Shown: piece after piece, positions 981 to 35,893 of the stretch
Layout of the letters: the number at the start of each line of letters is the position of its first letter
How positions within the stretch are numbered: the stretch's first letter is position 1
Assembly: GCA_038257185.1 (NCBI GenBank)
Contig: JBBSJO010000001.1
Span: 10,665 to 74,664 of the forward strand
Direction: 5' to 3'
Source: Rhodobacterales bacterium
GTDB taxonomy: Bacteria; Pseudomonadota; Alphaproteobacteria; Rhodobacterales; Rhodobacteraceae
DNA length: 64,000 bases
Notes under the pieces: model-generated
What the model saw: only the letters and a program-made list of their open reading frames with translations
Databases searched by the model: none
What the model was told of the DNA's origin: nothing
Program-made: the position numbers and the translations under genes

Positions 981-1179
981 GCGGCTCTCACCATTCCCCT
1001 CTCCCAAGCGGAGGGGGGCTTGCGGCGCTTCCGAAAAATGCAGGACCGTGGTCTGTGCCCCTTGTTCAATCCGGCGGGCGATCGAGAACGGGCCGCCTCC
1101 GGCGACGCGATTGCCATGGGCTTTGGCCCGATCTAGCGTGGCCCATGCGACGGAATCAGCTTACGCCGTGACCACAATG

Positions 1180-31945: not shown

Positions 31946-32515
31946 TCAGCTCTCTTTATCCCCATCCACCAGCGTCTTGATGATCGCGCGCGCGCTTGCG
32001 CTGGACCAGTCCGCATCGCCCCGCAGGCGGGCGATTTCGCGGCCTTCGGGGTCAAGGATCACGGTAATCGGCAGACCGAAGATGCCCATCTGGCTGGCAA
32101 GTTGCTGCTGGGGGTCCTGATGGCGCGGCAGGCTGTCAACTCCGGCTTCCGCGAAGAACCGTTGGATCCCTTCGGGGGAGTTGCGGCCCACGGCGATGGT
32201 CAGGACTTCGAACTTGTCGCCGCCGAATTCCTTTTGCAACGCATTGATCTGCGGCATTTCCTTGCGGCAGGGCGCGCACCAAGTAGCCCAGAAGTTCACC
32301 AGCACGTACTTGCCCTTGTAGTCGGCCAGCGTGGCGGTGCCCGCGTCGTCGGCGAGGTTGAACGGCGCGTCAGAGGTGGCTTCGGGCGTGTCATGGATGA
32401 CGAGCTTCTTCATGTCGCCGTCGCGCAGCCCGGCGATGTCCGGTGTCTGAGCCCAGCCGGGGTTTGCACCCAGCGTGAACGCCGTATAAGCAAGCGCCAA
32501 CACAAGTTTCTTCAT
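31946..32515 (-). CDS. TlpA family thiol-disulfide reductase
   Basis: Signal peptide and [16 protein letters not shown]. Confidence 0.92.
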
Positions 32516-32537: not shown

Positions 32538-33929
32538 ATGACCGACACGACCTCCAACACGATGTGGGGCGGCCGCTTTGCCGCCGGTCCCGACGCGATC
32601 ATGGAGGCGATCAACGCCTCGATCGGGTTCGACAGGCGGATGGCCGCACAGGACATCGCGGGATCGCGCGCCCATGCCGCCATGCTGGCAGCCACGGGCA
32701 TCCTGACTGATAGCGATGCGCAAGCGATACGGGAAGGCCTGCTCACGATCTTGTCAGAGATCGAGGGGGGCACCTTCGAGTTTTCCACGGCGCTTGAGGA
32801 CATCCACATGAACGTGGAAGCGCGTCTGAAGACGCTGATCGGGGAGCCTGCGGGGCGGCTGCACACGGGTCGCTCGCGCAACGATCAGGTGGCGACGGAC
32901 TTCAAGCTCTGGGTGCGCGATCAACTGGATGCGGCGGAGGCGGGCCTCGCAGCGCTCGTGCAGGCGCTTCTCGGCCAGGCCGAGGCGGGGGCGGATTGGG
33001 TCATGCCGGGGTTCACGCACCTGCAGACCGCGCAGCCGGTGACCTGGGGCCATCACATGATGGCCTATGTGGAGATGTTCGGGCGCGACATGGGCCGGAT
33101 GCGGGATGCGCGGGTCCGGATGAACGAATGTCCGCTGGGGGCGGCAGCACTGGCGGGCACGTCCTTCCCTATCGACCGGGAGATGACGGCGGGCGCCCTG
33201 GGCTTCGACCGCCCTTCGGCCAATTCTCTGGATGCGGTGAGCGACCGGGATTTTGCGCTGGAGTTTCTGGGTGCTGCGAGCATCTGCGCGATGCATCTGA
33301 GCCGTTTTGCGGAAGAACTGGTGATCTGGTCTTCGGCGCAGTTCCGGTTCGTGGCGCTGAGTGACCGTTTCTCGACCGGCTCAAGCATCATGCCGCAGAA
33401 GAAGAACCCCGACGCGGCGGAGCTGATCCGCGCCAAGGTGGGCCGCATCTTCGGGGCGAACACCGCGCTGATGATGGTGATGAAGGGGCTGCCGCTGGCC
33501 TATTCCAAGGACATGCAGGAAGACAAGGAGCAGGTTTTTGACGCCGCCGACAACCTGATGCTGGCGCTGGCCGCGATGGAGGGCATGGTGCGCGACATGA
33601 CGGCGCATCGCGAGGCCCTCGCGGCGGCGGCGGGCAACGGGTTTTCCACCGCGACCGATCTGGCGGACTGGCTGGTGCGGGTGCCGGGCCTGCCCTTCCG
33701 CGACGCGCACCACGCGACCGGCGCGCTGGTCGGCATGGCTGAAAAGCAGGGCTGCGACCTGCCGGACCTCACGCTGGAGCAGATGCAGTCGGTACACCCG
33801 GAGATCACGGCAGAGGTCTTCGACGTTCTGGGTGTGGAAAATTCGGTGAATTCGCGTATGTCTTACGGGGGCACCGCACCGGAGCAGGTGCGGACCCAGA
33901 TCGCACGGTGGAAGGAAAAACTGGCATGA
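32538..33929 (+). CDS. argH: Argininosuccinate lyase
   Basis: [28 protein letters not shown]. Confidence 0.97.
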
Positions 33930-34099
33930 GACTTGCACTTTGGCTGGCTGGCGCCGCCCTGCTGGGCGGCTGCGGCGCGGACGGCGAACCGATCCCGCCT
34001 TCGGCGTCGGTGACTTTGAACAATAGCGGCGTGTCAGTCGGGACCTCGGTCGGTTACCGCCATGGGCCTGTCGCCCTGTCGTTGGGGTTGGGGTTGTGA
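33926..34099 (+). CDS. 57-aa lipoprotein A (LptM/YifL-like position and N-terminus)
   Basis: ATGA-coupled to argH; lipobox LGGC then GADGEPIPP; C-terminal alternating beta-strands. Confidence 0.85.
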
Positions 34100-34266
34100 G
34101 GGGGGCACTCGTCGTCCTCGCTCTGATTGCGATGGGCGGTTGCACGGGTTCGGCTGATGAGGAGCGCGTGCCGAGGCGGTCAGACACGCGGCAGCTTCCC
34201 ACCAATACCGAACCGGGCCTGCATGTGTCGGGCCATGTGAATATCGGTGTGGTGAAGAGTTTCTGA
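34096..34266 (+). CDS. 56-aa lipoprotein B (not in ORF track)
   Basis: GTGA overlap with lipoprotein A; [23 protein letters not shown]...PGLHVSGHVNIGVVKSF; its stop is 1 nt before the next ATG. Confidence 0.8.
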   Translation: MRGALVVLALIAMGGCTGSADEERVPRRSDTRQLPTNTEPGLHVSGHVNIGVVKSF

Positions 34267-34267
34267 C

Positions 34268-34585
34268 ATGTCTGTCCTGCGCATGATCTACCTCGCGCTG
34301 GCGCTCTGGGGGGCGGTGCATCCGATGTACTGGTTCGTAACCTGGTTCGCGCAGCATGGCGTGGATCTTGGCGGCATGGTCGCGGCATGGCACGCCAATG
34401 CCGCCTCCAGCGGGCTGGTCTGGGACCTGACCATCGCCGCCGTCACGCTGACGGTCTGGATTGTGGCGGAGGTCGCCGTGCGGCGGAACTGGGTCGCATT
34501 GATTGCGATTCCCGCGACCTTCTGTATTGGGGTGAGCTGCGGGTTGCCGCTCTATCTGTTTTTGCGGACGGCACCGGTTCGTTAG
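34268..34585 (+). CDS. DUF2834-like small membrane protein
   Basis: Three hydrophobic segments, WDLTIAA, IGVSCGLPLYL.LR. Confidence 0.82.
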   Translation: MSVLRMIYLALALWGAVHPMYWFVTWFAQHGVDLGGMVAAWHANAASSGLVWDLTIAAVTLTVWIVAEVAVRRNWVALIAIPATFCIGVSCGLPLYLFLRTAPVR

Positions 34586-34627: not shown

Positions 34628-35893
34628 ATGGATCATTTCCTCTATCGCGACGGCACACTTTACGCCGAGGATGTCGCCGTGGCCGAGATTGCGGCGGCGG
34701 TCGGCACACCCTTCTACGTCTATTCCACGGCCACGCTGCTGCGGCACTACCAGCTTTTCGACGAGGCGCTGGCGGGGATGGAGCATCTGGTGTGCTATGC
34801 CATGAAGGCCAATTCCAATCAGGCGGTGTTGCGGACGTTGGCGCAGGCCGGGGCGGGGATGGATGTTGTGTCGGGCGGCGAGTACCTGCGCGCCAAGGCG
34901 GCGGGCGTGCCGGGCGAGCGGATCGTTTTCTCGGGCGTCGGCAAGACGGCAGCGGAAATCCGATTGGCTTTGGAGGGCGGCATCCGCCAGTTCAACGTGG
35001 AGAGCGAGCCGGAGATGGTGGTGCTTGATGCGGTGGCGCAGAGCCTTGGGGTGGTGGCGCCGATCACGATCCGGGTGAACCCGGACGTGGATGCCAGGAC
35101 CCATGCCAAGATCGCCACGGGCAAGTCGGAGAACAAGTTCGGCATTCCCATCGCGCGGGCGCGGGACGTTTATGCCATGGCGGCGAAAATGCCGGGGCTG
35201 GATGTGATTGGCATCGATGTGCATATCGGCAGCCAGCTGACCGATCTTGCCCCTTACGAGCAGGCCTATGCCAAGGTGGCAGACCTCACTGAGGTGCTGC
35301 GTGCGGATGGCCATGTGATCCGGCGGCTGGATCTGGGTGGGGGTCTCGGGATTCCCTATGAGCGGACCAATACCGCGCCGCCGCTGCCATCTGATTACGG
35401 CGCACTGGTGCAGCGGACATTGGGGCATCTCGGCTGCGAGATCGAGATCGAGCCGGGGCGGCTGATCGCGGGGAATGCGGGGCTGATGGTAAGCGAGGTC
35501 ATTTATGTCAAATCCGGCGAGGGGCGCGACTTCCTGATCCTCGACGGGGCGATGAACGACCTGATCCGGCCTGCGATGTACGACGCCTGGCACGACATCG
35601 TCCCGGTGATCGAACCTGCACCGGGTGCAGAGCAGGCCCCCATCGACATCGTGGGGCCGGTCTGCGAATCCGGGGACACCTTTGCGAAACAGCGGATGAT
35701 GCCGCCCTTGGTCGCGGGCGACCTCGTGGCCTTCCGCAGTGCGGGGGCCTACGGTGCCGTAATGAGCAGCGAGTACAATTCGCGGGCACTTATTCCCGAA
35801 GTGCTGGTGAAGGACGATCAATTTGCGGTTATTCGCCCACGTCCGACCTTTGACGAAATGATAAATCGCGATACCATCCCACAGTGGCTATGA
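34628..35893 (+). CDS. lysA: Diaminopimelate decarboxylase
   Basis: YAMKANSN PLP-lysine motif, HIGSQ, EPGR, GPVCESGD, GAYG. Confidence 0.97.
   Translation: MDHFLYRDGTLYAEDVAVAEIAAAVGTPFYVYSTATLLRHYQLFDEALAGMEHLVCYAMKANSNQAVLRTLAQAGAGMDVVSGGEYLRAKAAGVPGERIVFSGVGKTAAEIRLALEGGIRQFNVESEPEMVVLDAVAQSLGVVAPITIRVNPDVDARTHAKIATGKSENKFGIPIARARDVYAMAAKMPGLDVIGIDVHIGSQLTDLAPYEQAYAKVADLTEVLRADGHVIRRLDLGGGLGIPYERTNTAPPLPSDYGALVQRTLGHLGCEIEIEPGRLIAGNAGLMVSEVIYVKSGEGRDFLILDGAMNDLIRPAMYDAWHDIVPVIEPAPGAEQAPIDIVGPVCESGDTFAKQRMMPPLVAGDLVAFRSAGAYGAVMSSEYNSRALIPEVLVKDDQFAVIRPRPTFDEMINRDTIPQWL

Follow-up and report, generated by a model that had tools for sequence, protein, structure and literature searches.

Tandem micro-lipoproteins between argH and lysA in Sulfitobacter and its close relatives: a possible LptM counterpart and a clade-restricted companion

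In a 64,000-nucleotide stretch of DNA from a marine, Sulfitobacter-like member of the Rhodobacterales (assembly GCA_038257185.1, contig JBBSJO010000001.1, positions 10,665 to 74,664; called the window below), two tiny lipoprotein genes and a gene for a DUF2834 membrane protein lie between argH and lysA. The two lipoproteins, here called A and B, raise a question: are they a local version of LptM, the E. coli lipoprotein that binds the lipopolysaccharide (LPS) transport protein LptD, or do they serve some other purpose in the same place? LptM was described in 2023, and neither its C-terminal half nor its relatives outside the enterobacteria are understood. The answer we favour, with a confidence that falls a little short of even, is drawn by analogy with the E. 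coli protein: A may dock on LptD by way of its lipidated N-terminal decapeptide, and B may add, in the same complex, a β-hairpin that forms on a partner. B belongs to an uncharacterised, clade-restricted family that accompanies A.

The sequence-only reading that drew attention to this locus described a translationally coupled pair of lipoproteins of 57 and 56 residues with a DUF2834-like membrane protein one nucleotide behind them, and this layout is borne out. In the region around positions 33926-34585 the gene order is argH, A, B, DUF2834 and lysA, all on the forward strand, with the frames packed end to end (Table 1). The ATG start of A overlaps the stop codon of argH (ATGA), the GTG start of B overlaps the stop codon of A (GTGA), the DUF2834 gene starts one nucleotide past the stop codon of B, and both small proteins carry a lipobox. 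A Shine-Dalgarno-like stretch, GGAAGGA, precedes the start of A within the codons for the C-terminal RWKE of argH, and scans for promoters, terminators and Rfam families found none above background inside the argH-lysA unit. We picture the five genes as one putative housekeeping transcription unit in which start/stop overlaps tie the frames into a chain. Long spurious open reading frames abound on both strands of the window, which is rich in G+C, and the reality of A and B therefore had to be tested comparatively.

The A protein begins with a basic n-region, a hydrophobic core and the lipobox L-G-G/C16, and ends in LSLGLGL. Pfam and NCBIfam scans of A gave no significant match. Used alone as the query of a word-indexed search it returned two relatives only; a profile of 16 A sequences returned 1289 proteins of 56-62 residues, nearly all of the named ones from Sulfitobacter. 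These are all annotated as hypothetical, bar a few ill-fitting transferred names such as UniRef clusters called ‘Argininosuccinate lyase’ for a 59-residue protein. Across 60 sequences the columns C16, G17, D19, G20, P22, P25, G35 and G47 are invariant and E21, P48 and G54 nearly so. Beyond the decapeptide, hydrophobic and small residues alternate, and Gly and Pro are conserved at the presumed turns. The alternating strands that had been read from the sequence in this part of A are also predicted by AlphaFold2 from the A alignment, at residues 22-32, 35-46 and 49-56, with low confidence (mean predicted local distance difference test score, pLDDT, of 64).

Several properties of A recall LptM. 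A PF02784 decarboxylase and a PF00206 lyase are the genes most often found beside lptM-like genes in Proteobacteria, at mean gaps of less than 32 nucleotides (PMC10567701 supplement). A is flanked in the same manner: it overlaps argH (PF00206) upstream, and lysA (PF02784) is the next conserved gene downstream, directly adjoining A in the related loci L002 and L003. Like LptM, A is a small lipoprotein with Gly at +2 (LGG/C-G, with C16 and G17 invariant in the 60 sequences and lengths of 56-62 residues), and its mature length is 41 residues against 48 in LptM. Mature E. coli LptM starts C-G-L-K-G-P-L-Y-F-P (MG1655 record), and C, G+1, G+4 and P+9 of this stretch are common to A (the C20-P29 spacing). 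Apart from A, nothing in the window matches C-G-x-[KRD]-G-x-[LP]-x-x-P.

Where the constraint falls in A also parallels what is known of the E. coli protein. E. coli LptM can function with just nine residues, C20-F28; bound to LptD, the protein is ordered only over C20-P30, its C-terminus is non-essential, and the G21W substitution abolishes binding (bioRxiv 10.1101/2025.01.03.631273). In A, too, conservation centres on the ten residues that begin the mature protein, and some variants go without the C-terminus: the decapeptide is kept in the fused or shortened variants L011, L013, L015 and L028, and the C-terminal part is partly altered in L020. In L013, from Sulfitobacter mediterraneus DSM 12244, the signal peptide and CGADGEPVRP are kept and the C-terminal β-region is swapped for an unrelated AANDTAAEAVVLAAALEMEQSLFGPAKGQNT; B and DUF2834 are intact there.

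From its sequence and position, we file A as a divergent positional counterpart of LptM that probably works like it, rather than as a proven member, because it lies below the cut-off of the Pfam model LptM_cons. In the mechanism we propose, A would be the Rhodobacterales occupant of the lptM slot, with the lipidated C-G-[AV]-D-G-E-P-x-x-P as its functional core, and this decapeptide would dock on the LptD/LptE translocon as C20-F28 does in E. coli. The three-stranded β C-terminus would be an addition particular to the lineage, lost again in some species.

B has no match in Pfam or NCBIfam, and a word-indexed homology search was blank because its homologues share fewer than three five-residue words with it. 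A full HMMER scan of 1.84 billion protein representatives returned 13 B-type clusters of lipoproteins of 54-67 residues, among them RefSeq ‘hypothetical protein’ entries from S. brevis and S. aestuariivivens and one from a Paracoccaceae metagenome-assembled genome (MAG). When one genome per species was scanned with a pattern, B-type open reading frames with a lipobox turned up at the corresponding position and in the same frame in 12 genomes (11 carry the label Sulfitobacter, and one is an unclassified Alphaproteobacteria MAG); a metagenome scan with 7 B sequences found B-type loci on 8 contigs, and loci found via A homologues (L001, L031/32, L033 and L035) also have B.

Conservation of B was one of the points on which the sequence-only reading depended, and B is indeed intact and in frame in about 30 related loci, with its C-terminal motif under constraint. 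In the last 22 codons of B the proportion of nonsynonymous differences (pN) is 0.23, against a synonymous proportion (pS) of 0.68; over 20 loci the mean synonymous difference is saturated, at a pS of about 0.69. The start of B overlaps the stop of A (NTGA) in 18 of the 20, with ATG, GTG or TTG as the start codon depending on the species; in the other two a third tiny lipoprotein gene lies in between. Because the frame, the lipobox and the C-terminal motif are kept although synonymous sites are saturated, sequence comparison confirms B as a real gene. It is found only in Sulfitobacter and close relatives, as an uncharacterised family, and the earlier remark that the A/B pair has no description is right insofar as every member is annotated as hypothetical.

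In the complete genome of Sulfitobacter sp. SK011 (CP025803) B is present yet not gene-called; this copy ends in GVSTVN, without the usual basic residue at -3 and aromatic residue at -1. Gene callers thus miss B in some genomes, and its absence from the list of open reading frames available to the sequence-only reading is plausible since the SK011 annotation also lacks a call. No RNA runs were found to contain the locus. Close relatives occur at low depth in soil, sediment and salt-marsh metagenomes, as fragmentary contigs; one sediment-metagenome contig over window positions 34063-34258 has two base differences in B, one that causes V25A in the variable linker and one, at S29, that is synonymous, which is too little to use.

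Mature B starts CTGS and ends in PGLHVSGHVNIGVVKSF. The linker after its lipobox had been called disordered, in agreement with what we find: it varies in sequence and in length (about 12-30 residues) and is predicted to be unstructured. In most members it is followed by [ST]-D-T-R-Q-Q-P-S-N. The last 18 residues are of a different kind: in 34 distinct sequences they are indel-free and always flush with the C-terminus, and P-17, G-16, G-11 and G-6 are invariant. Positions -15, -13, -7 and -5 hold V, I or L, and further preferences are H-14 (28/34), H or Y at -10 (30/34), N-8 (25/34), R or K at -3 (29/34) and F or Y at -1 (29/34, the other five ending in I, L or N). Hydrophobic and polar residues alternate over 15 residues of this tail. 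Because the tail is symmetric around G-11 (V/V, H/N, V/V, G/G), we take it for a short amphipathic hairpin that turns over three residues and is followed by the last five; alternatively, it could be one long strand. AlphaFold2 gave no fold and no strand for the B monomer, from a shallow alignment of 14 sequences, a result that fits a tail that folds only on a partner. Binding of a metal by the two His residues of B was considered and rejected, the second His being Y, S, D or Q in 10 of the 34 sequences.

Natural variants of the locus bear on how the two proteins are related. The majority form, argH-A-B-DUF2834-lysA, stands beside loci that lack B, lack DUF2834 or have gained a third lipoprotein gene (Table 1), and in three Sulfitobacter lineages A and B are fused in frame into a single lipoprotein of 61 residues. 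The fusions consist of the signal peptide of A, CGADGEPVQPT and about ten further residues, joined at a Ser-Asp common to A and B to the conserved C-terminal region of B (in L028, ...NNLSD followed by TRQQHSNYTPGVHVSGHVNIGVTKGI). They are in effect a natural deletion experiment: the β-region of A and the signal peptide and linker of B are dispensable, and the decapeptide of A and the tail of B are retained. That the decapeptide and the tail sit on one lipid anchor argues that A and B act in the same place.

In E. coli, a Gly or Thr directly after the lipidated Cys directs a lipoprotein to the outer membrane (the +2 rule). By this rule A and B, with Gly and Thr respectively, would both be sorted to the outer membrane, and 31 of the 34 B sequences have G or T at +2. 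B would be a later addition to the locus, limited to Sulfitobacter and close relatives and built of a lipid anchor, a variable disordered tether and an 18-residue, glycine-punctuated amphipathic β-hairpin or strand at its C-terminus. It would fold only on its partner, by β-sheet augmentation, and it may act in the same outer-membrane complex as A because three lineages fuse the N-terminus of A to the C-terminal motif of B.

The following observations weigh against this proposal. LptM_cons (PF13627), which scores E. coli LptM at 33.9 bits with a gathering threshold of 27.3 bits, has no match to the window's A at E <= 10; 6 of 16 A homologues match it weakly, the best at 14.9 bits (E 0.024), and these alignments cover mostly the signal peptide and lipobox. 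The search against an LptM model that had been suggested as a check therefore came out negative. LptM-like proteins in the dataset of the LptM study have [KR] at +3 and L at +6 (PMC10567701), whereas A has an invariant Asp and an invariant Pro at these positions; against C-G-x-[KR]-G-[PD]-L-x-x-P only C, G+1, G+4 and P+9 are present, and ten residues are too few for statistics. Of the likeness to LptM proposed from the sequence, the argH/lysA neighbourhood and the C-G-x-x-G-x-x-x-x-P spacing stand; it is weakened by the Pfam scores and by the +3 and +6 residues. A-type sequences or motifs were not found in the part of that study's supplementary sequences available to us, and no paper connecting LptM with Rhodobacterales was found. 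The C-terminus of A is a conserved, Gly/Pro-punctuated β-region, whereas the tail of LptM is disordered and polar. Both structure models, of A and of B, are of low confidence (pLDDT about 64), the B homologue of L016 has Asp at +2, and B is nearly always directly upstream of DUF2834, which leaves room for an inner-membrane partner.

If the resemblance to LptM were fortuitous, A and B would be small outer-membrane lipoproteins of a generic kind, unconnected with LptD, for instance glycine-rich, membrane-associated stress or structural peptides like OsmB and other glycine-zipper proteins, and their slot would be inherited synteny with no meaning for function. We regard this as unlikely, though not negligibly so. 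A shares with OsmB, SlyB/PCP and Rick_17kDa_Anti its tiny size and regular glycines, having one at every fourth residue (G35, G39, G43 and G47, GxxxGxxxGxxxG); together with the sub-threshold LptM_cons scores and the uniformly hypothetical annotations, this is what speaks for the idea. The extra lipoprotein gene of L020, L021 and L027, about 41 residues long with the pattern ...SCGP...LE[ST]Y... and overlapping stops and starts, adds to it, as the spot may be a permissive one; the argH-lysA locus seems to accumulate micro-lipoprotein genes. However, A gives no match to a glycine-zipper family of Pfam at E <= 10, its Gly-rich part is predicted to be β rather than a helical hairpin, and the glycines of B are spaced by five residues, not four. 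The conservation of A peaks in the N-terminal decapeptide and not in the Gly-rich part, and its slot and C/G/G/P spacing agree with LptM. A search of PDB sequences with the A profile gave signal-peptide noise only; one candidate, the 67-residue ‘Lipoprotein’ chain 9leg_D, was rejected because its match (E 0.27) is confined to the signal peptide.

The neighbour on the other side of B suggests a different partnership, in which B and DUF2834 form a two-gene module, with the lipoprotein regulating or stabilising the small inner-membrane protein, for example, and the adjacency of A is incidental. The assignment of the downstream product to DUF2834 is secure (104.3 bits, where 22.9 is the cut-off, over 95 of the 96 profile positions), and its gene follows B in every examined locus that has sequence downstream of B, L016 excepted, at a gap of 0-2 nucleotides or with an overlapping start. 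No sampled locus has DUF2834 without the B motif, and L002 and L003 lack both. Set against this, L016 has A and B and no DUF2834, the co-occurrence falls within one narrow clade and can be explained by shared ancestry, the +2 residues of B point to the outer membrane by the E. coli rule, and the fusions join the B motif to the anchor of A. DUF2834 also occurs in Vibrio, Deinococcus, Spirosoma, Tsukamurella and Pseudalkalibacillus, including groups that have no outer membrane, and in the annotated Deinococcus and Spirosoma records its neighbours are unrelated and no small lipoprotein lies upstream; the Vibrio record has no annotation of the neighbours. Because it is found in unrelated bacteria with other neighbours, these gene contexts indicate that DUF2834 is not an obligate partner of B and is a small membrane protein in its own right that is linked with B in this clade, where the two may still be partners; no functional work on it was found in the literature. 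We consider the two-gene module distinctly improbable.

A sharper form of the β-augmentation idea is that B is a lipid-tethered mimic of an edge strand, whose hairpin pairs with an open β-edge of an essential outer-membrane machine, such as the lateral gate or β-taco of LptD, or strand 1 of BamA, and so tunes the machine alongside A, the charge-inverted analogue of LptM. The anatomy of B is compatible with a strand mimic, as had been proposed from the sequence. We think this specific reading quite unlikely. Were it true, B would be a natural protein counterpart of darobactin-like gate binders, and the A::B fusions would be single-chain versions of a two-part regulator.

Alternatively, the C-terminus of B might imitate the signal of unassembled outer-membrane proteins (OMPs), making B a substrate or modulator of the β-barrel assembly machinery (BAM), a small oligomeric barrel or a ligand for the PDZ domain of a periplasmic protease. 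The β-signal recognised by BAM has the pattern polar-x-G-x-x-aromatic/hydrophobic-x-aromatic/hydrophobic. The B motif is always at a free C-terminus, alternates between hydrophobic and polar residues, and with its polar -8, invariant G-6 and F or Y at -1 agrees with three of the four defined positions. The fourth does not agree: -3 is never aromatic or hydrophobic and is basic in 29 of 34 sequences, and the earlier comparison with a BAM β-signal fails at this position. Nor is the terminal residue always aromatic, as five sequences end in N, I or L. The motif, 17 residues by this count, is short for a transmembrane hairpin, and AlphaFold2 built no strand for the monomer. As to the likeness to the first strand of Rhodobacter porins, also proposed from the sequence, the N-terminus of the R. 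capsulatus porin was quoted correctly (2POR residues 1-24), and the B tail and porin residues 2-13 share h-x-h-S-G-x-x-x-h-G-V, where h is hydrophobic. However, no PDB chain, porins and other OMPs included, matched the B profile or the 30 C-terminal residues of B at E <= 10, with 2POR in the library, and B is a lipoprotein of about 40 residues, not a barrel. On sequence grounds the porin-strand and β-signal likenesses are leads without statistical support, not evidence, and we consider an OMP-like role for the tail very unlikely.

The remaining alternative, that B is a chance open reading frame, could appeal to the many long spurious frames of this G+C-rich DNA, its GTG start and its blank Pfam, NCBIfam and word-index searches, but is for practical purposes refuted by a frame, lipobox and motif shared by about 30 loci at saturated synonymous divergence, by an overlap with the A stop that outlasts changes of start codon, and by in-frame fusions that preserve the motif.

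An origin of the pair by tandem duplication was also considered. An hhalign comparison of full-length A and B gave a probability of 94%, and of their mature regions only 4.3% over 10 columns; since the similarity vanishes without the signal peptides, paralogy is unsupported.

If A is the Rhodobacterales counterpart of LptM, the lptM slot can take a peptide with inverted charge at a key position, one that surveys based on PF13627 miss, and the reported 57% occurrence of LptM in Alphaproteobacteria is an underestimate. Only the lipidated decapeptide would then be under absolute constraint, which would match the E. coli truncation data, and a second model from nature would be at hand for peptides that bind the LPS translocon. 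B and the A::B fusions (separate, fused or absent) would offer a genetic system with which to probe the variable tails of micro-lipoproteins. If neither A nor B contacts LptD, they are simply another pair of uncharacterised small lipoproteins.

Table 1 Features of the argH-lysA interval, its surroundings and its variants. Positions without an L number are those of the window; L numbers denote related loci.
Feature	Position or loci	Strand	Remarks
argH, argininosuccinate lyase	32538..33929	+	Pfam Lyase_1 2e-78, ASL_C2 6.8e-28; first gene of the overlapping chain
Lipoprotein A, 57 residues	33926..34099	+	Signal peptide residues 1-15, lipobox LGG/C16
Lipidated N-terminal decapeptide of mature A	33971..34000	+	Consensus C-G-[AV]-D-G-E-P-[VI]-x-P; columns over 60 sequences
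A C-terminal part	33989..34096	+	Predicted three-stranded amphipathic β-meander; turn residues G35, G47-P48, G54 conserved
Lipoprotein B, 56 residues	34096..34266	+	Signal peptide residues 1-15, lipobox MGG/C16, variable linker residues 17-28
B C-terminal 18-residue motif	34210..34263	+	E-P-G-L-H-V-S-G-H-V-N-I-G-V-V-K-S-F; 34 distinct sequences
DUF2834 small membrane protein, 105 residues	34268..34585	+	Pfam PF11196 4.4e-30
lysA, diaminopimelate decarboxylase	34628..35893	+	Pfam Orn_Arg_deC_N 2.4e-59, Orn_DAP_Arg_deC 2.1e-29
TlpA-like periplasmic thioredoxin/redoxin	31946..32515	-	Divergent from argH
DUF4175 protein, 886 residues	35898..38558	+	Pfam 2e-268
Antisense open reading frame, 335 residues	33381..34388	-	
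Antisense open reading frame, 595 residues	34034..35821	-	
Architecture argH-A-lysA	L002/L003		
Architecture argH-A-B-lysA	L016		
Architecture argH-A-B-DUF2834-lysA			Majority form
Architecture argH-A-X-B-DUF2834-lysA	L020/L021, L027		X, third lipoprotein, about 41 residues
Architecture with single fused A::B lipoprotein	L011, L015, L028		
A::B fusions	L011:3001-3186, L015:2968-3153, L028:1501-1686		
Gene X	L020:3879-4004, L021:346-471, L027 about 1030-1153		
A with altered C-terminus, S. mediterraneus DSM 12244	L013:2831-3001		
B of Sulfitobacter sp. SK011	L033:2177-2353		

The flanks of the unit are ordinary chromosomal core, with ppx, ppk, an hda-like gene, an AI-2E transporter and a TlpA-like redoxin upstream and DUF4175, ftsE/ftsX and an acyltransferase downstream. 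The TlpA-like gene beside argH, an arrangement kept in related loci, is noteworthy in view of the role that E. coli LptM has in the oxidative maturation of LptD. The two long antisense frames that run opposite argH through lysA look like artefacts of G+C composition, and the length of an open reading frame is by itself unreliable in this window. The DUF4175 gene begins four nucleotides past lysA and is downstream of lysA in all of the longer related loci; its product has N-terminal membrane segments and a long C-terminal half of Gln/Glu/Gly-rich low complexity.

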